Below are positions 3,441 through 42,340 of a stretch of 64,000 nt of DNA, one piece after another. Source of the DNA: Chloroflexota bacterium (lineage in GTDB: Bacteria > Chloroflexota > Dehalococcoidia > Lucifugimonadales > UBA2985). How positions within the stretch are numbered: position 1 is the first letter of the stretch; each line of letters opens with the position of its first letter. Below the pieces are notes generated by a model. That model was given only the letters and a program-made list of their open reading frames with translations, was not told where the DNA came from and searched no databases. Position numbers and translations under genes: made by a program. The stretch lies in contig JAQBZZ010000003.1 of the NCBI GenBank assembly GCA_027622595.1, forward strand, positions 6,014 through 70,013. Direction: 5' to 3'.

Positions 3441-4766
3441 GTGAAAATGGCACCAACCGGATGGTTTCCAACCACAAGAAATCGAAGCCAGGAGGGTCTG
3501 GGTGTATGGGAGCATCGCGGTAAGGTAGCCGTCGTCGGAATAGGCAACTCCCCGACGGCTCGGCGCTGGGACGAAACCGCGGATACCAGCGTCGGTGCCT
3601 GGGCTATCAGTGCGGCCCAGAAGGCCCTGGACGAAGCCGGGATTTCCAGAGACGAAGTCGATGGCGTGGTCACCTGCCCGCAGGGCATGGGAAGCCCCTG
3701 GGCGCCGAACCCGATACCGGAAGATTTTGCAAAGGCGTATGAGCCAACGGACAACCCCGACGATGGTCTTACAGGCGTATCCGCGGACTGGATCGTCAAG
3801 AACATGGGGTTGAAAAACGTAAAGGCCACATATCATACCCCGGCCTGCATCTCTCCCGCTCTGTGCGCCGGGGCCCAGGTCGTCGGCGACGGTGAGGCCA
3901 GCACAGTTCTGGTAATCAGGGGCACTGGCAACTTCTCGGGTCGGTACGGGCAGTATGGGGCAGCGGCGGGTGACACAGCGTCCGGGCCTGGTCAGTGGAC
4001 CAATCCCTGGGGCTGGCAGTTGATTCCCCAGATAGCCTATGGTTTCGACCAGTATTGCCGCAAATACGGCTCCAGTCATGACAGGATGGCCCCCTTCGTG
4101 CTCAACCAGCGCAAGAACGGTGCCCTGTTTCCAGAGGGATACTACTATCAGCACCGGCCTGATGATCTCAAAATAAGTGTTGAGGAGTACCTATCCGCGC
4201 GGTGGATATGCAAGCCCATGAATATCTACGACTGCGACATGCCGATCCATACCGCCGGGGCCTTTTTACTCACCACCGCGGAACGGGCAGTGAACATGAA
4301 ACAAAAACCCGTGTACGTCCTCAACCACGTCTCGCAGAGGGCTAAGGTACGGAGCAGTGTTGAGACCCTGGATGAGACGGAGGCGTTCACCGACAGCATC
4401 GCCCGTAAGGTATATGAGGGATCAGGTTTGACCGCAAGCGAGTTGGACATCTGCAACCCCTACGACGGATTCACCCTCTTCACCCAGTATTTCCTGGAAG
4501 GCCTGCAGTGGCACGGTGTGCAGAGGGGTGAAGCCCACGACTTCTATGCCGGAGACATCAGCGTCAAGGGGCCGCATCCATTCAGCTCCAGTGGGGGCAA
4601 CAACGGCAATGGGCGAACGCGCTGGTGGAATCAACTCGATTGCATTCAGCAGCTGCGCGGAACGGCAGGGGAGCGGCAGGTTACTCTAAAGGCCGAGACG
4701 GCGCTGGCCGGTGCCTTCACCCCTAACATGTCCGACTGGATGGTATACGGCACCAGCCCTGACTAA
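3441..4766 (+). CDS. thiolase-like (SCP-x / lipid-transfer-type) protein (copy 1)
   Basis: 441 aa with KVAVVGIGNS, HTPACISPALCAGAQVV, a NPYDGF-type segment, and SSGGNNGNGRTRWWNQLDCIQQLRGTAGERQV. This is the typical partner of DUF35 proteins. Confidence 0.85.
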   Translation: MKMAPTGWFPTTRNRSQEGLGVWEHRGKVAVVGIGNSPTARRWDETADTSVGAWAISAAQKALDEAGISRDEVDGVVTCPQGMGSPWAPNPIPEDFAKAYEPTDNPDDGLTGVSADWIVKNMGLKNVKATYHTPACISPALCAGAQVVGDGEASTVLVIRGTGNFSGRYGQYGAAAGDTASGPGQWTNPWGWQLIPQIAYGFDQYCRKYGSSHDRMAPFVLNQRKNGALFPEGYYYQHRPDDLKISVEEYLSARWICKPMNIYDCDMPIHTAGAFLLTTAERAVNMKQKPVYVLNHVSQRAKVRSSVETLDETEAFTDSIARKVYEGSGLTASELDICNPYDGFTLFTQYFLEGLQWHGVQRGEAHDFYAGDISVKGPHPFSSSGGNNGNGRTRWWNQLDCIQQLRGTAGERQVTLKAETALAGAFTPNMSDWMVYGTSPD

Positions 4767-7068: not shown

Positions 7069-7097
7069 TTGACAAAAAGAACCCTCTTTCGTACCAT
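7069..7097 (+). promoter_or_regulatory. sigma70-like promoter TTGACA-17-TACCAT
   Basis: -35 at 7069-7074, a 17-nt spacer, and -10 at 7092-7097, upstream of the HAD gene. Confidence 0.5.
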
Positions 7098-7194
7098 GCC
7101 CGTTAGTGTGGTCATGTGTCATCAGCACTGGAGACAATTCCCGACACATGGCGTAATATAGGTTCCAGCACGACTCGAAAGGGGAGGGCCGTAC

Positions 7195-7776
7195 TTGAAG
7201 ATCCTGCTAAGTTTTGATATAGACGGTACCCTGGAGACAGGTGACCCACCCGGGCCTGTGACCCTGGATATGGTGAGAAGAGCTAGGGACATGGGATGCA
7301 TAATCGGCAGCGCCTCCGACCGTTCCATTTCATCCCAGACTGCCATGTGGGAGAGAAGCGAAATCGTAGTGGACTTCGTGGCCAATAAGCATGTCCTGAT
7401 GGAAATAAAGCAGCGGTTTGAGGCAGATTTCTACCTGCACCTGGGAGACAGGGAGTTGGATCGCCAGTTCGCTCGTGAGGCCGGGTTTGATTTCATGTGG
7501 ATGGATGAAGCTGCCTCTGAGCCTTGGATTGCCATACAAAATAGTGGCATAGCACAGGTGCCGGATGGTACAGGTGCTTCCATCATTGAAAAAGGTGTCC
7601 TCAACAGCAGTGGGCCAGCGGGAATAATCAAGCCTCCACAATTCTCCACATCCGATTGCAATGTGGTTAACAAAGAATACAACTGGTGTGAAACACACCA
7701 CAGGCCCATCTGGGAGTGCAAGAAATACGAGGCCGACCTCAAGGCACCACAGAAGGAAATGGACGGTCTTGACTGA
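7195..7776 (+). CDS. HAD-superfamily hydrolase with C-terminal extension
   Basis: Motif I FDIDGTLE at the N-terminus. GGGGAGGG precedes the TTG start. Confidence 0.75.
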   Translation: MKILLSFDIDGTLETGDPPGPVTLDMVRRARDMGCIIGSASDRSISSQTAMWERSEIVVDFVANKHVLMEIKQRFEADFYLHLGDRELDRQFAREAGFDFMWMDEAASEPWIAIQNSGIAQVPDGTGASIIEKGVLNSSGPAGIIKPPQFSTSDCNVVNKEYNWCETHHRPIWECKKYEADLKAPQKEMDGLD

Positions 7777-7875: not shown

Positions 7876-7904
7876 TTGACACGGGTTTAAGGGCGTGCTA
7901 TACT
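7876..7904 (+). promoter_or_regulatory. sigma70-like promoter TTGACA-17-TATACT driving the Cys leader
   Basis: -35 at 7876-7881, a 17-nt spacer, and -10 at 7899-7904. The ATG at 7915 is 10 nt after the -10. Confidence 0.6.
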
Positions 7905-7914
7905 CATGGCTAAG

Positions 7915-7965
7915 ATGTTTACGCATTATTTGTTGGTGAACTGCTGCTGTACCGGTGGACCATAG
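7915..7965 (+). CDS. polycysteine leader peptide MFTHYLLVNCCCTGGP (16 aa)
   Basis: Read directly: atg ttt acg cat tat ttg ttg gtg aac tgc tgc tgt acc ggt gga cca tag. Three consecutive Cys codons at 7942-7950. Located between a promoter and an intrinsic terminator, upstream of the sulfate assimilation genes. Confidence 0.6.
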   Translation: MFTHYLLVNCCCTGGP

Positions 7966-7993
7966 GGGCAGAATATATCTGCTGGAGTGCAGC

Positions 7994-8034
7994 GCGCCCC
8001 CTTCAACTGAGTTTGAAAGGGGCGCTTTTATTTT
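7994..8034 (+). terminator. intrinsic terminator (attenuator) in the leader of the tauE-cysH-cysC-sat operon
   Basis: GCGCCCCCTTC (7994-8004) / GAAAGGGGCGC (8015-8025) with a 7-bp GC core and 1 mismatch, then TTTTATTTT (8026-8034). Confidence 0.7.
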
Positions 8035-8081: not shown

Positions 8082-8863
8082 ATGGAACTACAACCGATAA
8101 TAGTATCAGCCGGACTGGTCATTGGGGTTCTCATCGGGCTCACAGGTATGGGGGGCGGTGCTTTGATGACCCCCTTCCTGATACTCATGGGAGTCCGGCC
8201 CTCCGTCGCCGTTGGCACAGACCTCTTCCAGATGATGTTCACCAAGTCCTTCGGTGCTTGGCAGCATCACCGTCAGGGTACGGTGAACTACCGCGTGGTG
8301 TTACCTCTGATCCGTGGGAGCCTTCCCGGCGCGCTGCTTGGAGTGGTGTTGCTGGTAGTACTCCGGGACAGCTTCGGCATATTCATGGACGTTTTCCTGG
8401 CCCGTCTTCTGGGAGGAGTGCTGACCCTGGTTGGAGTCGCCCTTCTCCTTCGCCTGCTCCTCCGACGGTGGTTTCGTATCGGTTGGAGTCATGGGAAGGG
8501 CTGTCCCTGGAGGGCATGGGAGCCTTCCTTCTTACGGGGCTGGGTGCAGTTGTAGGCTTGCTGGTGGGGCTTACATCGGTTGGCAGCGGCACCCTGTTCA
8601 TCGTAATACTGACCGCCCTGTTTCGCATATCAATGCGCACCATAGTTGGTACCGATGTCGCACACTCCGCTATTCTCACAGCGGGGGCAGGTCTGTTACA
8701 CTTAGGATTCGGGAATGTAGACTTGGTGCTGGCGGCGAATATCCTCGTCGGCTCCATTCCGGGGGTCATCGTGGGGAGCCGCCTCACCGTAAGGGTCCCA
8801 GAAAGAGGGCTCAGGGCCGTGGTGGCACTGGCATTGATGGCCGTGGGATTGAAATTGCTCTAG
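8082..8863 (+). pseudogene. TauE/SafE-family sulfite exporter / anion permease, interrupted by a frameshift near 8460-8515
   Basis: The N-terminal half (LIGLTGMGGGALMTPFLILMGV...AVGTDLF) is in the frame of ORF 8082-8555. The C-terminal half (GLGAVVGLLVGLTSVGSGTLFIVILT...IVGTDVAHS...) is in the frame of ORF 7955-8863. Confidence 0.7.
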
Positions 8864-8876
8864 TTGGAGGAATGAA

Positions 8877-9629
8877 TTGTTAGATCAGGCACGTGAGTTG
8901 ACGGCAGAAGACATGGATAGAATAAACCAGGACTTGGAGAATAAGTCCCCGCAGGAGATATTGGCGTGGGCTTTTGAGAAGTTTGCTCCTGACATTGTGC
9001 TGGCGTGCAGCTTCGGCGGTGGTTCAGGCATGGTGCTGCTGGACATGGCGGCGCAGATATATCCTCAGATCAAGGTGTTCTACCTTGATACCGACTTTCT
9101 CTTCCCGGAGACCTATGCACTCCGTGACGAGGTGGCCAGGCGATACGGCGTCTCGCCGGTGGGCTTCAAGTCCCGCCTCACGGTGGCGGAGCAGGCAGCC
9201 CAGTACGGTGAGGCTCTATGGAGCCGTGACCCCGATCTCTGCTGCGAACTCCGGAAGGTTGAGCCAAACCAGCGCGCCCTTGAGGGAGAACGGGCCTGGA
9301 TATCCGGCCTACGACGTGACCAGTCTCCCACTCGCCGCGACATGCAGGTGGTATCCTGGGACACCCAGTTCAACCTTGTGAAGCTGGCTCCTCTGGCCGC
9401 CTGGGGAGAAGCCCAGGTGATGGACTACGTTCACGAGCACAAAGTGCCGTACAACCCCCTCTACGATCAGGGGTATCTCAGCATCGGGTGCATGCAATGC
9501 ACCCGTGCCGTCAAACCGGGAGAAGACCCTCGGGCCGGTCGCTGGGCCGGTACAGACAAAATAGAATGTGGCATCCACCTGCCTGGGCAGGAGCCCGTAG
9601 AGCAGGGGACTGCCGGAGGTGCAAAGTAA
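8877..9629 (+). CDS. cysH: adenylylsulfate/phosphoadenylylsulfate reductase (CysH, Fe-S type)
   Basis: [31 protein letters not shown] and KIECGIH motifs. GGAGGA precedes the TTG start. Confidence 0.9.
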
Positions 9630-10234
9630 TGACACAGGTTAATCTCAACCGCCAGGATAAGGGATTCACGCTCTGGTTCACCGGGCTCTCAGGAGCTGGT
9701 AAGAGCACCATCGCCGAGAAGGTGTATCAAAACCTCAAAGAGGCGGGCAGGAACGTGGAGATGCTGGACGGCGATGTGGTGCGTACAAACCTGAGCAAGG
9801 GCCTTGGGTTCAGCAAAGAGGACAGGGACACCAACATACGGCGCATAGGGTTTGTGAGCAAACTTTTGAGCCGGAATGGGACAATCGCCATCGTCGCCGC
9901 TATTTCACCCTACAGGGATGTGCGTGATGAAGTGCGCGAAGAGATCGGCGACTTCGTTGAGGTGTTTGTGGAGTGCTCACTGGAGGAGTTGACAAGGCGC
10001 GACGTTAAAGGCCTGTATGAAAAGGCCATTCGCGGAGAGATAAAGAACTTCACAGGCGTATCCGACCCCTACGAGGAGCCTCTGAACCCGGAGGTGGTTG
10101 TCAACTCTCAGCATGAGAGTGTGGAGGAGAGCATTTCCAAGGTGATGGCCAAACTCAACGAGATGGGGTATCTGTCTGCCGACATGGCAACTGGAGGATC
10201 ATCTCCGATGGTGGGCACAGGGAGAAACGCATGA
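9629..10234 (+). CDS. cysC: adenylylsulfate kinase
   Basis: [17 protein letters not shown] (P-loop) and LDGDVVR. The ATG overlaps the cysH stop (TAATG). The track ORF start at 9488 lies inside cysH. Confidence 0.9.
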
Positions 10235-11406
10235 CCACTCAAGTAAAAGATGACATGAAATTGACACCTCCACACGGAGGCACACTGATCAATGGATACG
10301 CCGTGGAAGACCAGACCCAGGCTCTCAGGGAAGAAGCCAGTGGTCTTCCAAGCGTAGTTATCAACGCAAGGCAGCTTTCCGATGCCCACATGATAGCCCA
10401 GGGGGCCTTCAGTCCGCTGCAGGGCTTCATGGGTCATGAGGACTACAGTGCCGTCGTCAAGGACATGCACCTGGCAAATGGCCAACCCTGGCCCATCCCG
10501 GTAACTCTGGCGGTGGACTCCCACCAGGCCGCGGAACTCAAAGAGGGAAAGCGGATTGCTCTGTCCATGGGGGACGGAGAGGTTGTCGGAGTTCTCTCTT
10601 TGCAGGGGAAATTCCGCCGCGATAGGGAGGAAGAGGCCCTGGCGGTCTATCGTACCACAGAGGAACAGCACCCCGGGGTGGCCAACCTGTACCAGGACGG
10701 AGATGTGATTCTGGGTGGAAAGGTAACTCTGTTCCCCGGGCTTCCTGCCTTGGAGGATGGTATCTTACCTCACTACCGCACTCCGTCCCAGACCAGGGAG
10801 GCTATATCTCAGTTGGGATGGTATACTGTGGTCGGTTTTCAGACCCGCAACCCTGTGCACCGTGCCCACGAGTATATCCAGAAGTGCGCTCTGGAGGCGG
10901 TGGACGGCCTTCTGCTTCATCCACTGGTAGGAGAGACCAAGAGCGACGATATCCCCGCTTCTGTGCGCATGCGTTGCTATCAAGTGCTGTTGGAAAATTA
11001 CTACCCACAAGATAGAGTGCTCCTCTCGGTATATCCCGCATTCATGCGCTACGCGGGGCCCAGAGAGGCCATCTTCCATGCTCTGGTGCGCAAGAACTAC
11101 GGTTGCACTCACTTCATCGTTGGGCGAGACCACGCCGGGGTCGGGAACTACTACGGGCCTTACGACGCCCAGCATATCTTCAAGGAGTTCCAGCCGGGGG
11201 CTTTGGGGATAACCCCGCTGTTCTTCGAGAACTCCTTCTTCTGCCGCCAGTGCCACGGGATGGCAACGGAGAAAACCTGCCCTCATGGTGCTGACCACAG
11301 AGTCAGCCTGAGTGGTACACAAGTGCGGGAGATGCTGGCCAAGGGGGAGATGCCGCCGGAGGAGTTCACACGTCCGGAAGTAGCCAAGGTGCTGATGGAG
11401 TCCTAG
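10231..11406 (+). CDS. sat: sulfate adenylyltransferase (ATP sulfurylase)
   Basis: [13 protein letters not shown] and GRDHAGVG motifs. ATGA overlap with cysC. Confidence 0.9.
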
Positions 11407-39605: not shown

Positions 39606-41396
39606 CTAGATGGCGCACTCCCCTTCGCCCCGTTCCACCTTGTACAACACCGTTTTGTCCCAGTCCATGTACGTATCGATGTTCTCTCTGTTGAGGGTTC
39701 CCAAATCCTGGTACTCCCCAATAATGGCCTCAATGGGTCCAACCCCAACCCTATCAACGAATGTGTTGAAGGGTTCTGCCTCCGCCCGGTGCTTCTGGTA
39801 GTAGCCAAGGACGTTGCGTATGATCTCCGGCACCCTCTTTGCGGGGACCTTTCCCTTTGGCCTCAGGCCGATACGTGCCTCCGTCTGGCCATTCAGGTCC
39901 TGGTAGCTGCCCCCGATGAACATCTCGTAGGCAGGGACGTGGTTGCCTTTATCGCCCTTCATGGAAGCGCCGTGGAACCCTATGTTAGCCAGGTGGTGCT
40001 GTCCGCAGGAGTTGGGGCATCCGCTCATCTTGATGTGCAGACTCTTGACCAGGGGGTCGGAGATGTCCATATTGGCGAGTTCCTCGCGTATGGCCTTTCC
40101 AAGACCCATGGCGGAGGTGATGCCAAGCTTGCAGCTATCGGTGCCCGGGCAAGATGTGACGTCGGTTATGGTATTCACCTCTGGTTCGGCCAGGCCTGTT
40201 TCCTTCAGGTCCTTCCACAGGGGGTACAGGGCCTCTTCCCGCACCCAGCGGAAGGCCATGTTCTGCTGCTGTGTGAAGCGGGCCCGGCCGCTGGCGTATT
40301 TCGTGGCGATGTCGGCCAAAAGAGGAAATTGGTGATCTTGAATGTCGCCCTGGGGCAGCTTTACCAGCACCACGTGGAAGCCGGCCTGTTTCTGGGTCTG
40401 GACGTTGGTGTTACGCCACAGCTCGAACTCGCCTCTGTCCCCGTTGGGCGATATCTGGGTTCCAGCGGCTGGGGGCTGGGGCGCGTCGGCCTCCTCGTCG
40501 TCCAGGTACAGCAGGGGTGTTGGGTCAATGGTTTTCTGTGCCCAGGGCCTCTTCAGCTCTTCCTCCACCAGCTTGCGGAACTCGTCAATGCCGATGCGGT
40601 CCACCATGAACTTGATACGGGCCTTCATCCTGTTCTTCCGCTCCTGCTCCGAGGCATCGAATACCCGCAGGACCGCTTCGCTGATGCGCAGGTAGTTATC
40701 CACGGGCACGAACTCGTACAGGGTGGGTGCGATACGGGGCATGATGGCAAGGCCGCCACCGACAACCATCTTGAATCCCTTCTCGATTTGACCGCCCACT
40801 TCGCGGGTCTTTGGTATGAAACCTACATCGTGGATGCTGGTGAGTGCGCAGTCCTTTTCGCAGCCGGAGAACGATGTCTTGATCTTGCGGGGCATACCCT
40901 GGCTTACAGGGTGACGCAAGAAGTACCGGGCGTAGGCACCGGCATAGGGCGTTGTGTCAAAGGGTTCGTCGGCGCAGACACCAGCCAGAGGGCATCCAGT
41001 GACGTTGCGTACCGTATTGCCGCAGGCCTCCCGTGTGGACAGTCCTGCCTGCCCAAGGACACTCAATGCCTGGGGGGTCTGTTCCAGGGGCACGAAGTGG
41101 AACTGCATGTTCTCCCGGGTGGTCACATGGCCCTTTTTCATAGGGGCAAAGTCCCGTGCTATGACTCCCAGGCGCTCCAGTTGTTCCGAAAAGACCTCTC
41201 CAACGGGCAGCTTTACCCTGAGCATGTGGACGTCGGGCTGGCGTTGTCCGTAGACTCCCATCCTGAGACGGAATGCCTGGAATGCTATTGGGTCCCAGTC
41301 ACCCTGAATAAACTCCCCCACCACCCTCTCAAAATTATCAAGCTCTTCTTGGAGAACAGGTAGGATACCCTTCTCATTTATCTTTGCCTGGCTCAT
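39606..41396 (-). CDS. sir: ferredoxin-type sulfite (nitrite/sulfite) reductase, siroheme-[4Fe-4S]
   Basis: TSCPGTDSCKLG and SGCPNSCGQHH cluster-binding motifs. AAGGAGG RBS. Confidence 0.9.
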   Translation of the reverse strand: MSQAKINEKGILPVLQEELDNFERVVGEFIQGDWDPIAFQAFRLRMGVYGQRQPDVHMLRVKLPVGEVFSEQLERLGVIARDFAPMKKGHVTTRENMQFHFVPLEQTPQALSVLGQAGLSTREACGNTVRNVTGCPLAGVCADEPFDTTPYAGAYARYFLRHPVSQGMPRKIKTSFSGCEKDCALTSIHDVGFIPKTREVGGQIEKGFKMVVGGGLAIMPRIAPTLYEFVPVDNYLRISEAVLRVFDASEQERKNRMKARIKFMVDRIGIDEFRKLVEEELKRPWAQKTIDPTPLLYLDDEEADAPQPPAAGTQISPNGDRGEFELWRNTNVQTQKQAGFHVVLVKLPQGDIQDHQFPLLADIATKYASGRARFTQQQNMAFRWVREEALYPLWKDLKETGLAEPEVNTITDVTSCPGTDSCKLGITSAMGLGKAIREELANMDISDPLVKSLHIKMSGCPNSCGQHHLANIGFHGASMKGDKGNHVPAYEMFIGGSYQDLNGQTEARIGLRPKGKVPAKRVPEIIRNVLGYYQKHRAEAEPFNTFVDRVGVGPIEAIIGEYQDLGTLNRENIDTYMDWDKTVLYKVERGEGECAI

Positions 41397-41450
41397 TATG
41401 CCTCCTTAAGATTTTGGGAGATTTCGGTGCTTACAATGTGGGATTTCTTG

Positions 41451-41498
41451 ATAAAACAAATCGCCCCCTCAGTGTAGTACACGCTGAAGGGGCGATTT
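41451..41498 (-). terminator. intrinsic terminator (attenuator) in the sir leader
   Basis: Minus strand: AAATCGCCCCTTCAG (41498-41484) / CTGAGGGGGCGATTT (41472-41458) with 1 mismatch, followed by the TTTGTTTTAT tract. Lies 60 nt upstream of the sir ATG. Confidence 0.7.
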
Positions 41499-41532
41499 AT
41501 AGATTTAATGGTTACCAGGTAAGCCCCTTATT

Positions 41533-41592
41533 TTAGGGTCTACAACAGCAGCAATTTATGGTAAATCCTCCGTATGTCTGAAAGGCGTTCAT
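41533..41592 (-). CDS. polycysteine leader peptide MNAFQTYGGFTINCCCCRP (19 aa)
   Basis: Minus strand: atg aac gcc ttt cag aca tac gga gga ttt acc ata aat tgc tgc tgt tgt aga ccc taa. Four consecutive Cys codons at 41553-41542. Confidence 0.65.
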   Translation of the reverse strand: MNAFQTYGGFTINCCCCRP

Positions 41593-41601
41593 TTGTCGTG
41601 A

Positions 41602-41630
41602 ATCTTAGTCCACTTAAGCAACAATGTCAA
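41602..41630 (-). promoter_or_regulatory. sigma70-like promoter TTGACA-17-TAAGAT driving the sir Cys leader
   Basis: -35 at 41630-41625 and -10 at 41607-41602. The ATG at 41592 is 9 nt after the -10. Confidence 0.6.
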
Positions 41631-41695
41631 GTTATTCGTAAAGGTTGTTGCTTGATGGGACGGCAGGTGCTACAGTCGCCGTGGAACTGACTATC

Positions 41696-42340
41696 ATGTC
41701 TACCGAGATGGACAAGGCCAGGAAGAGACTATTCGATGGTCTTCGCAAAGAGATCGCCGCGGAGAGGGTGCTTGATGCCATGGAAAGAGTGCCGCGGGAG
41801 CTATTTGTGCCTGAGGCAAGCCGCCACCTGAGCTACGAGGACATTCCGCTGCCCATAGGAGAGGGGCAGACCATATCTCAGCCGTACATCGTGGCGTTGA
41901 TGACCGATGCCCTGGAGATCGGGGATGAGGACACGGTACTGGAACTGGGTACAGGCAGTGGGTACCAGGCGGCTATACTCTCTCTACTGGCACGGAAGGT
42001 CTTGTCCACTGAGAGAATTGCTTCCCTGGTGGAGGAGGCTGGGAGATTGCTCACCTCGCTGGGATACGATAACGTGGAAGTGCGCCTGGACGGGAGCGAG
42101 TTGGGGTGTCCTGAGGAAGCTCCATTCGATGCCATTATGGTCACGGCAGCCGCTCCTACATTGCCCCGCGTGTTGCTGGGACAGATGGCTCAGGGAGGAA
42201 GGCTGGTGATTCCAGTCGGGTCTCAGCAGGAGCAGGGGTTGGTTAAAGTGACCAGAATCGACGATGGGTATTCCATAAGCAATCTGGGTTCATGTCGCTT
42301 TGTGCCTCTGTTGGGGAGAGGGGCCTGGGACGACTTTTAG
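41696..42340 (+). CDS. pcm: protein-L-isoaspartate O-methyltransferase
   Basis: GEGQTISQPYIVALM and VLELGTGSGYQAA. Internal ATG chosen as the start. Confidence 0.88.
   Translation: MSTEMDKARKRLFDGLRKEIAAERVLDAMERVPRELFVPEASRHLSYEDIPLPIGEGQTISQPYIVALMTDALEIGDEDTVLELGTGSGYQAAILSLLARKVLSTERIASLVEEAGRLLTSLGYDNVEVRLDGSELGCPEEAPFDAIMVTAAAPTLPRVLLGQMAQGGRLVIPVGSQQEQGLVKVTRIDDGYSISNLGSCRFVPLLGRGAWDDF

Follow-up and report, generated by a model that had tools for sequence, protein, structure and literature searches.

A putative cysteine-responsive transcription attenuator with a polycysteine leader upstream of sir in Dehalococcoidia

What controls sir, the sulfite reductase gene, in a Chloroflexota bacterium of the class Dehalococcoidia? 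The question is raised by a 64,000-nucleotide (nt) stretch of contig JAQBZZ010000003.1 (positions 6,014 to 70,013), here called the window. In it, sir is preceded on the minus strand by a promoter, a short open reading frame (sORF) with a run of cysteine codons and a strong hairpin. The product of sir belongs to the nitrite/sulfite-reductase family and is read here as assimilatory sulfite reductase; sir would be the gene under regulation. An earlier note on the same DNA had proposed that this leader, together with a second one in the window, belongs to a cysteine-responsive attenuation regulon. Our analysis suggests that a transcription attenuator of the classical four-segment kind, in which the translating ribosome responds to cysteine supply, probably controls sir.

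The promoter, the 9-nt gap to the ATG, the sORF, its cysteine codons and its stop codon all lie where the earlier note had placed them when the minus strand is read (Table 1). A promoter scan of 40900-42300 found this promoter as the sole promoter-like site, with none between the terminator and sir. The sORF comprises 19 codons. Runs of at least four Cys codons occur once on both strands of the 64-kb window, in the sir leader itself, compared with 0.1 expected from shuffles. Likewise, of only four sites in the window that fit TTGACN-N16-18-TANNNT-N5-11-RTG, two belong to the Cys leaders. Downstream of the stop codon, AAGGGGC in segment 2 is a perfect complement of GCCCCTT in segment 3 on the minus strand, as had been claimed. 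The claim of a terminator followed by sir also holds: the hairpin at 41500-41456 has 17+3 base pairs (bp) and a folding energy of -30.4 kcal/mol (z = -9.06; 0 of 200 shuffles equal it), and it ends in and runs on into a U-rich tract, UUUAUC coming right after the hairpin, before the sir ATG at 41396. A simple terminator scan overlooked this hairpin, probably owing to an internal mismatch beside its loop, and it was established by folding instead. The entire 204-nt sir leader also folds better than its shuffles (z -4.65).

The relatives of Sir are nearly all encoded by Dehalococcoidia, SAR202 and Chloroflexota metagenome-assembled genomes (MAGs), and the top species-representative relative is a Dehalococcoidia MAG with 81% identity (L001). 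From the sir loci at 68-96% Sir identity (L001, L081-L091) we obtained 10 distinct leaders, and all 10 share the same layout. Each has a promoter of TTGACA, about 17 nt and TAnnAT, followed 8-10 nt after the -10 element by an ATG, with no space for a Shine-Dalgarno (SD) sequence. The sORF encodes 13-19 amino acids and ends in C(2-4)-x(1-2)-Pro-stop, a G-run follows 5-13 nt past the first base of the stop codon, and the sir SD comes after a CGCCCC...GGGGCG terminator that runs out in U-rich sequence. Cys-codon runs in orthologous sir leaders, on which the earlier note had made its reading depend, are thus kept in 10 of 10, along with the G-run and the terminator.

The leader peptides themselves are far less constant. 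What the close leaders have in common is limited to the Cys run and the x-Pro-stop at the C-terminus, and the N-terminus drifts. The N-CCC(C) peptide core that the earlier note had seen in both window leaders is not conserved, as the residues before the Cys run are SA, IV, YR, SL, PL or IR in the orthologs. Even the leader of the relative whose Sir is 96% identical has changes at 4 of its first 13 residues, yet it retains the Cys run and all four segments. This is how a leader that senses would be expected to evolve, and it argues against a functional peptide. Cys-rich small proteins do exist, and a sORF with a strong promoter and its own terminator could be taken to encode a metal-binding or redox-active micropeptide, with the hairpin merely ending its transcript and sir controlled separately. 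We regard this as most improbable. Besides the drift outside the Cys run and the last residues, peptide length and spelling vary widely in Dehalococcoidia while the site upstream of sir or cysH stays constant, sir has no promoter-like site of its own downstream of the terminator, and RNA pairing (CCC with GGG) explains the conserved positions. The terminal Pro is invariant in the window subclade: L083, L022 and locus 1 of the window keep it although their CCA codon has lost its pairing to the G-run.

What would the conserved segments do? In every close leader, in locus 1 and in L022, they can form three mutually exclusive helices. Helix 1:2 joins the Arg/Lys-Pro-stop codons (GCCCU) with AGGGGC, and its energy ranges from -3.5 to -17 kcal/mol; it is stronger in most orthologs than in the window (down to -17) and weaker in L083 (-3.5). 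This pairing of segment 1 with segment 2 can be a possible anti-antiterminator or pause hairpin. Helix 2:3 joins the G-run with the C-run of the terminator 5' arm (duplex energy -9 to -19 kcal/mol), and helix 3:4, the terminator, ranges from -15 to -40 kcal/mol. When the nascent RNA was folded up to the terminator loop under varied ribosome positions in 13 leaders, 2:3 was the minimum-energy fold in most of them if the ribosome occupied the Cys codons and the 3' arm was still missing. Placing the ribosome at the stop codon removed this pairing.

The spacing of the leader fits this behavior. Counted from the first base of its stop codon, the window leader has segment 2 at +6 to +12 and the start of the last Cys codon at -9. 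Ribosome protection is assumed to extend about 12 nt 3' of the A-site codon. With this footprint, a terminating ribosome would cover segment 2 and a ribosome at any of the four Cys codons would leave it free, so the corresponding geometric claim of the earlier note holds. Among the leaders compared, the predicted duplex lies 9-16 nt from the first base of the last Cys codon, and the G-run about 13-15 nt from it.

Sequence variation adds to the case for helix 2:3. In an alignment of 11 related sequences (A3), 91.9% of the cells of helix 2:3 are paired, compared with 54-70% in controls in which the partner was shifted by 1-3 columns. Compensatory changes occur at two pairs (5 cells), and the covariation score is reached by 0 of 500 column shuffles. 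Variants include GAGGGG/CCCCUC in L087, UCGGGG/CCCCGG in L088, and a 3-G run facing a 3-C run in L022. Both the 1:2 core and the terminator reappear in the RNAalifold consensus, in which 4 pairs are compensated. We consider the covariation evidence for helix 2:3 to be modest.

What the sequences show is the elements, their positions and conservation, and the capacity for alternative helices; from these, we propose how the transcript would start, be translated in its sORF, terminate and answer to cysteine. From the near-consensus promoter, the transcript would begin at the AUG of the sORF or no more than about 3 nt before it. Because the -10 element leaves no room for an SD sequence, a leaderless or near-leaderless start is expected, and initiation would be of the leaderless type. 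The ribosome would read the 19-codon leader as RNA polymerase makes the next ~130 nt. With ample Cys-tRNA(Cys), it would reach the Pro-stop and, with the stop codon in the A site, mask about 12 nt downstream including AAGGGGC. With segment 2 masked, the 3:4 terminator would form and transcription would end ~55 nt before sir. With scarce Cys-tRNA(Cys), the ribosome would stall at any one of the four Cys codons, where it would hide segment 1 and leave segment 2 free. Free segment 2 would pair with GCCCCUU on its emergence, so that the core of the terminator 5' arm would be lost and read-through would allow sir to be made. If the leader were not translated at all, 1:2 and 3:4 would both form and transcription would terminate.

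Several points weigh against this scheme. Leaderless translation in Dehalococcoidia is presupposed by the model. The window antiterminator alone (2:3, 7 bp, -10.4 kcal/mol) has a z of -0.92 and the window 1:2 hairpin alone (-6.9 kcal/mol) a z of -0.67, neither better than shuffles, and the support for these two predicted helices is purely comparative. The GGGG:CCCC core of helix 2:3 is invariant, and its covariation lies in two flanking pairs among 11 sequences. Helix 1:2 is paired in 88% of cells, shows no compensatory change and overlaps coding constraint. The U-tail is poor in some orthologs, for example UUUCAUUCC. In stability the terminator (-30 kcal/mol) greatly exceeds the antiterminator, and the terminator 3' arm could displace it; the switch would therefore have to be kinetic. 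Finally, in distant leaders of the CxCxC type a crude count of paired bases under a ribosome mask gave 18 versus 12 of 33, with no clean separation.

Table 1. Features of the two window leaders and their genes, and leader peptides of the close sir orthologs (coordinates are window positions)
Feature	Coordinates	Strand	Remarks
Sigma-70-type promoter of the sir leader	41602-41630	-	TTGACA 41630-41625, 17-nt spacer, TAAGAT 41607-41602; 10/12 matches
Leader sORF MNAFQTYGGFTINCCCCRP + TAA	41533-41592	-	ATG 41592, 9 nt past -10; TAA 41535-41533
Four successive Cys codons TGC TGC TGT TGT	41542-41553	-	proposed sensing codons
Segment 1 GUAGACCCU	41535-41543	-	sORF end: last Cys, Arg and Pro codons plus U of the stop; can pair with segment 2
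Segment 2, putative antiterminator arm	41519-41529	-	AAGGGGC 41529-41523 plus CUUA; +6 to +12 from the first base of the stop
Segment 3 GCCCCUU	41487-41493	-	within the terminator 5' arm; complementary to segment 2
Predicted intrinsic terminator, segments 3:4	41450-41500	-	hairpin 41500-41456 plus U-rich tract
sir Shine-Dalgarno AAGGAGG	41401-41407	-	~55 nt past the terminator; kept in most close orthologs
sir, 596 amino acids	39606-41396	-	NIR_SIR PF01077, E 1e-55; NIR_SIR_ferr PF03460, E 3.5e-28
Locus 1 promoter	7876-7904	+	TTGACA-17-TATACT, TG-extended -10; 11/12 matches
Locus 1 leader sORF MFTHYLLVNCCCTGGP + TAG	7915-7965	+	ATG 10 nt past -10; TAG 7963-7965
Locus 1 switch	7964-8034	+	GGGGC 7965-7969 can pair with GCCCC 7996-8000
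Locus 1 operon	8092-11406	+	tauE-family permease (frameshift-split), cysH (3'-phosphoadenosine 5'-phosphosulfate (PAPS) reductase), cysC (adenosine 5'-phosphosulfate (APS) kinase), sat (ATP sulfurylase)
L081 leader peptide			MHAPQTYGGFAVNCCCCRP
L001 leader peptide			MDARLRSACCCCRP
L083 leader peptide			MYRKLAIVCCCCTP
L084 leader peptide			MHRVAIFYRCCCKP
L086 leader peptide			MYARFTSLCCCRNP
L087 leader peptide			MNAFLPPLCCCCRP
L088 leader peptide			MTPYSFVNCCCCIP
L089 leader peptide			MCSWFAVYIRCCRP
L090 leader peptide			MFAYSVLNRCCCKP
L091 leader peptide			MKRRIVVDIRCCRP

Could the leader act on translation instead? A Cys-stalled (or queued) ribosome might free a sequestered sir SD, as in mycobacteria, with the terminator being secondary or constitutively leaky. 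In the sole Cys leader dissected experimentally, stalled ribosomes unmask a downstream SD (10.1101/834739), and in 5-6 of 12 full-length lowest-energy folds of the leaders studied here the 5' portion of the sORF is the partner of the sir SD. In 5 others a neighboring CUCC immediately 5' of the SD takes this role, for example ACUCCCAAGGAGGC. The SD partner varies among the orthologs, however, and no conserved sequestering helix is evident. A strong hairpin with a U-rich tract, needless for a translational device, stands between the sORF and sir in every leader, and the G-run after the stop codon matches the terminator 5' arm and not the SD region. We therefore consider a purely translational switch unlikely, although translational output could be an added layer on transcription attenuation. 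The CUCC just upstream of the sir SD is found in the window (~41399-41422, minus strand) and in L001, L083, L084, L086 and L087, and can form a small SD-sequestering hairpin; this may, according to the folding, constitute a second, translational layer.

A terminator serving a convergent gene was also considered for the hairpin and rejected: the neighbor, PCMT (41645-42340, plus strand), points away, and the plus-strand ORF over sir is an antisense shadow of sir. Read on the plus strand (41443-41498), the terminator is near-palindromic, A-rich on one flank and U-rich on the other, which is why the sir-leader covariance model scores this opposite strand at 31.8 bits. No plus-strand gene ends there, and a bidirectional terminator function seems unneeded.

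The window contains a second leader of this design, locus 1, upstream of a sulfate assimilation operon. Three Cys codons (7942-7950) lie in its sORF, GGGC directly follows the TAG stop on its 3' side, and the terminator hairpin at 7994-8025 (-20.4 kcal/mol, z -3.77) is followed by UUUUAUUUU. The most likely start of its peptide is ATG 7915; the ATG before it lies only 1 nt past the -10 element. Together, the sir leader and the locus 1 leader precede all steps from sulfate to sulfide. A same-design leader on tauE-cysH-cysC-sat would thus put the whole sulfate-to-sulfide route on one signal. The tauE gene (8092-8863, plus strand) is split by a frameshift, with the break between ~8433 and ~8525. 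Its halves correspond to residues 1-117 of the intact L172 homolog in one frame and 148-255 in another, and the Pfam matches to this permease likewise come in two halves; the frameshift could be an assembly error or mark a pseudogene.

How far are the two window leaders alike? The earlier note had held that they share promoter spacing, a peptide core, a stop-adjacent G-run and the terminator, and had suggested a covariance model for scanning this and related genomes. The likeness stands for the architecture of promoter, sORF, stop-adjacent G-run and terminator, but the two leaders show no detectable sequence homology. A covariance model built from the sir leaders (R1) gives 108.9 bits to the window sir leader and 8 bits to locus 1, and the idea of demonstrable homology between them was dropped on this score. 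The model finds the tauE leader of L172 (25.8 bits, E 7e-4) and L001; it misses locus 1 and the distant CxCxC leaders. A third site with a consensus promoter and a start codon, TTGACA-17-TACCAT-8-GTG, lies at 7069-7106 (plus strand) and opens a 16-amino-acid ORF, VWSCVISTGDNSRHMA. This ORF stands upstream of ORF 7195-7776, which has a weak DUF7124 hit.

Relatives of locus 1 retrieved through CysH (L172, L173) bear on the regulon that the earlier note had put forward. In L172, sir adjoins tauE-cysH-cysC, and each has its own Cys leader and terminator (1935-2060 and 3955-4085): MLIGSKLDRLMCRCCL before sir, and MVVRFSATCCCCCCMPAP, with six consecutive Cys codons, before tauE. In L173, a lone cysH is preceded by MCVTISLVCCCPP, and the sequence after the stop codon, UAGGGGGUAGCGCU, is complementary to the terminator arm AGCGCUACGCCCC. 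With Cys leaders before tauE-cysH-cysC and before a lone cysH, the notion of several predicted Cys leaders over sulfur assimilation loci, that is, a cysteine-responsive regulon, is supported. The tauE leader of L172 has no clear consensus promoter and may also receive read-through from sir.

The design extends beyond the close orthologs. The wider set comprised 80 species-representative genomes and 80 metagenome contigs with Sir relatives; the metagenome scan with a Sir alignment yielded relatives of at most 60% identity, which served for breadth and not for close covariation. More distant Dehalococcoidia have Cys-rich leaders of other spelling in the same position and with the same promoter-to-ATG geometry, for example MHSTCKTICICTCTCPPKSGAG, MLVNNICICTCTCPPP, MINGTGNVFLCCTCPPT, MTLINQVTVCDCTCMK, MAHTAFHQVCACRCGP and MIIKICSDYCSCICRL. 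A terminator is detectable in nearly all of them, L003 being the exception. A blind regular-expression search, run on both strands of ~1.2 Mb of loci, required a promoter and, after 5-11 nt, a start codon opening an ORF no longer than 45 amino acids; it gave 71 hits, 56 of which encode at least 2 Cys. All except one of these 56 (55/56) stand on the sense strand, 117-257 nt before sir or cysH. With looser criteria, Cys-rich sORFs turned up in 36 of 143 upstream regions versus 10 of 143 on the antisense strand. The duplex of segments 2 and 3 beats 95% of shuffles in 11 of 34 diverse leaders, a weak test in which the shuffles keep the G content.

This Cys enrichment also bears on the possibility that termination in the leader is controlled independently of the ribosome, by a protein, a small ligand or Rho, with the Cys codons being incidental. 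An extra protein factor is compatible with all the data, and Rho-dependent termination has been proposed for terminator-less Cys leaders of Actinobacteria (Seliverstov et al., PMC1262725). Yet the proportion of promoter-proximal sORFs with at least 2 Cys is extreme, the spacing from the Cys codons to segment 2 is narrow, and the region from the stop codon to the terminator is poorly conserved outside the segments. Nor does either leader match a known RNA family: an Rfam 15 scan of the window at the gathering score returned one tRNA and no leader, and at E up to 10, with the Trp, His, Leu and Thr leader models included, only weak unrelated hits fell on the two leaders. Ribosome-independent control is very unlikely in our assessment, and ribosome-mediated attenuation at the Cys codons is the reading retained here.

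A distinct form of leader was observed in L050-L072, L121, L124, L130 and L131, ~170-260 nt upstream of sir. These leaders have alternating Cys, CxCxCxCPP(K/T)..GAG-stop, and in their Pro-Pro-Thr codons CCGCCCAC imitates GCGCCCACC of the terminator 5' arm. Segment 2 appears to lie within the ORF, made up of the G-rich Gly-Ala-Gly codons, an arrangement similar to the ...GNGAG end of E. coli thrL. In an Acidobacteriota MAG (L080, 1802-1915), an ORF beginning MTASAHVRAILATCCPCCCCCRPNRPTGG... lies 1085 nt upstream of a sir homolog, which hints at polyCys leaders beyond Chloroflexota and Actinobacteria.

A broader idea can be offered tentatively, and we hold it to be rather doubtful as a whole: a class-wide 'Cys ribulon' of leaderless Cys sORFs with terminator and antiterminator, combined with parking of the ribosome at the Pro-stop. 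In Dehalococcoidia, including SAR202-type lineages, independently evolving Cys sORFs may govern sulfate assimilation, replacing a regulator of the CysB or CymR type. In the window subclade, the Pro-stop may be a programmed slow-termination step that parks the ribosome on the antiterminator arm until the terminator forms. Hayes, Bose and Sauer are said to have found in 2002 that a C-terminal Pro slows peptide release in E. coli, and for this reason the Pro-stop may hold the ribosome over segment 2. The Pro-stop is not general, as about 22 of about 55 leaders end in Pro in a tally over the regular-expression hits. We know of no description of a Pro-stop as a working part of a classical attenuator.

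These predictions provide a testable regulatory logic for sulfur assimilation in Dehalococcoidia and SAR202, a large and mostly uncultured group for which our literature search found no published gene-regulation work of this kind. They extend Cys-codon attenuation from Actinobacteria and Alphaproteobacteria to Chloroflexota, and suggest that a complete terminator/antiterminator switch of the classical kind can go together with a leaderless-type start. Gene callers and Rfam miss these leaders, which carry no annotation. Their signature of a consensus promoter, an ATG within ~10 nt, a Cys-rich sORF and a terminator gave very few false positives in the present data set, and is usable for mapping the cysteine regulon in MAGs.

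Among known systems, the enterobacterial attenuators trpL, hisL, thrL, pheL, leuL and ilvL provide the closest parallel for the switch. As proposed here, they have a short leader ORF rich in codons for the end product and four segments that pair as 1:2, 2:3 or 3:4, with the ribosome position deciding the helix, and they control biosynthetic genes of the sensed amino acid. The sequence features that mark a trpL/hisL-type attenuator, namely clustered cognate codons, an intrinsic terminator and a mutually exclusive, maskable antiterminator, can all be recognized in the sir leader, the antiterminator as a predicted helix supported by comparison. pheL also ends in Pro-stop, and thrL ends in ...GAG-stop like the more distant Dehalococcoidia leaders. 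The present leaders differ in the amino acid, cysteine, in the phylum, Chloroflexota, and in the ATG 8-10 nt past the -10 element instead of an SD-led start, and we found no sequence or Rfam-model similarity between the enterobacterial leaders and those of the window. To our knowledge, cysteine has no attenuator in E. coli, where the cys regulon is under CysB.

The amino acid and the start find their parallel in mycobacteria. Canestrari et al. 2020 (10.1101/834739; Mol Microbiol 114:93) showed that polycysteine leaderless sORFs attenuate mycobacterial cysteine operons, where pausing on Cys codons under starvation relieves attenuation by freeing a sequestered SD. The mycobacterial sORFs (10.1101/834739), like the present ones, evolve fast and appear to have arisen independently. 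As in the leaders studied here, the mycobacterial Cys ribulon has unannotated leaderless-type sORFs with a C-terminal Cys run as the first cistron before sulfur genes; several independent loci per genome answer to one signal there, as is predicted here. At least two consecutive Cys codons near the C-terminus before cysteine-related genes, the mycobacterial hallmark, are found here. The -10 element ends 8-10 nt before the ATG in the 13 close leaders inspected (5-11 nt was the search range for the wider set), a spacing that would fit a transcript beginning at the sORF. The dissected mycobacterial case is translational and lacks a terminator, whereas every close leader here has an intrinsic terminator and an antiterminator arm. 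The mechanism at their other loci, including transcriptional action, is left open by Canestrari et al. (10.1101/834739).

Two other proposals involve Cys codons. Brewer et al. 2021 (PMC8632094) described uORFC-8-2 upstream of cysS in Rhodobacterales, with tandem Cys codons and a terminator stem with a U-run, and proposed ribosome-mediated transcription attenuation that senses Cys-tRNA(Cys). In uORFC-8-2, an alphaproteobacterial leader of cysS, two Cys codons lie inside the first stem and no leaderless geometry is described; here, in contrast, the Cys codons lie upstream of segment 1, outside the stem, and the genes are sir and tauE-cysH-cysC-sat. Seliverstov et al. 2005 (PMC1262725) predicted, by comparative genomics, candidate Cys leader peptides before cys and cbs operons of Actinobacteria. 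Those leaders share the Cys-codon runs near the stop codon; they lack recognizable terminators, and Rho was proposed for them, whereas the terminators here are clear and conserved. Our literature search, which did not cover the attenuator survey of Lopatovskaya et al. 2010 (Mol Biol 44:128), found no published Cys attenuator from Chloroflexi or Dehalococcoidia. The mechanism itself is not new: it joins the enterobacterial switch to the amino acid and leaderless-type start of mycobacteria, in a new phylum and before the genes of sulfate reduction.

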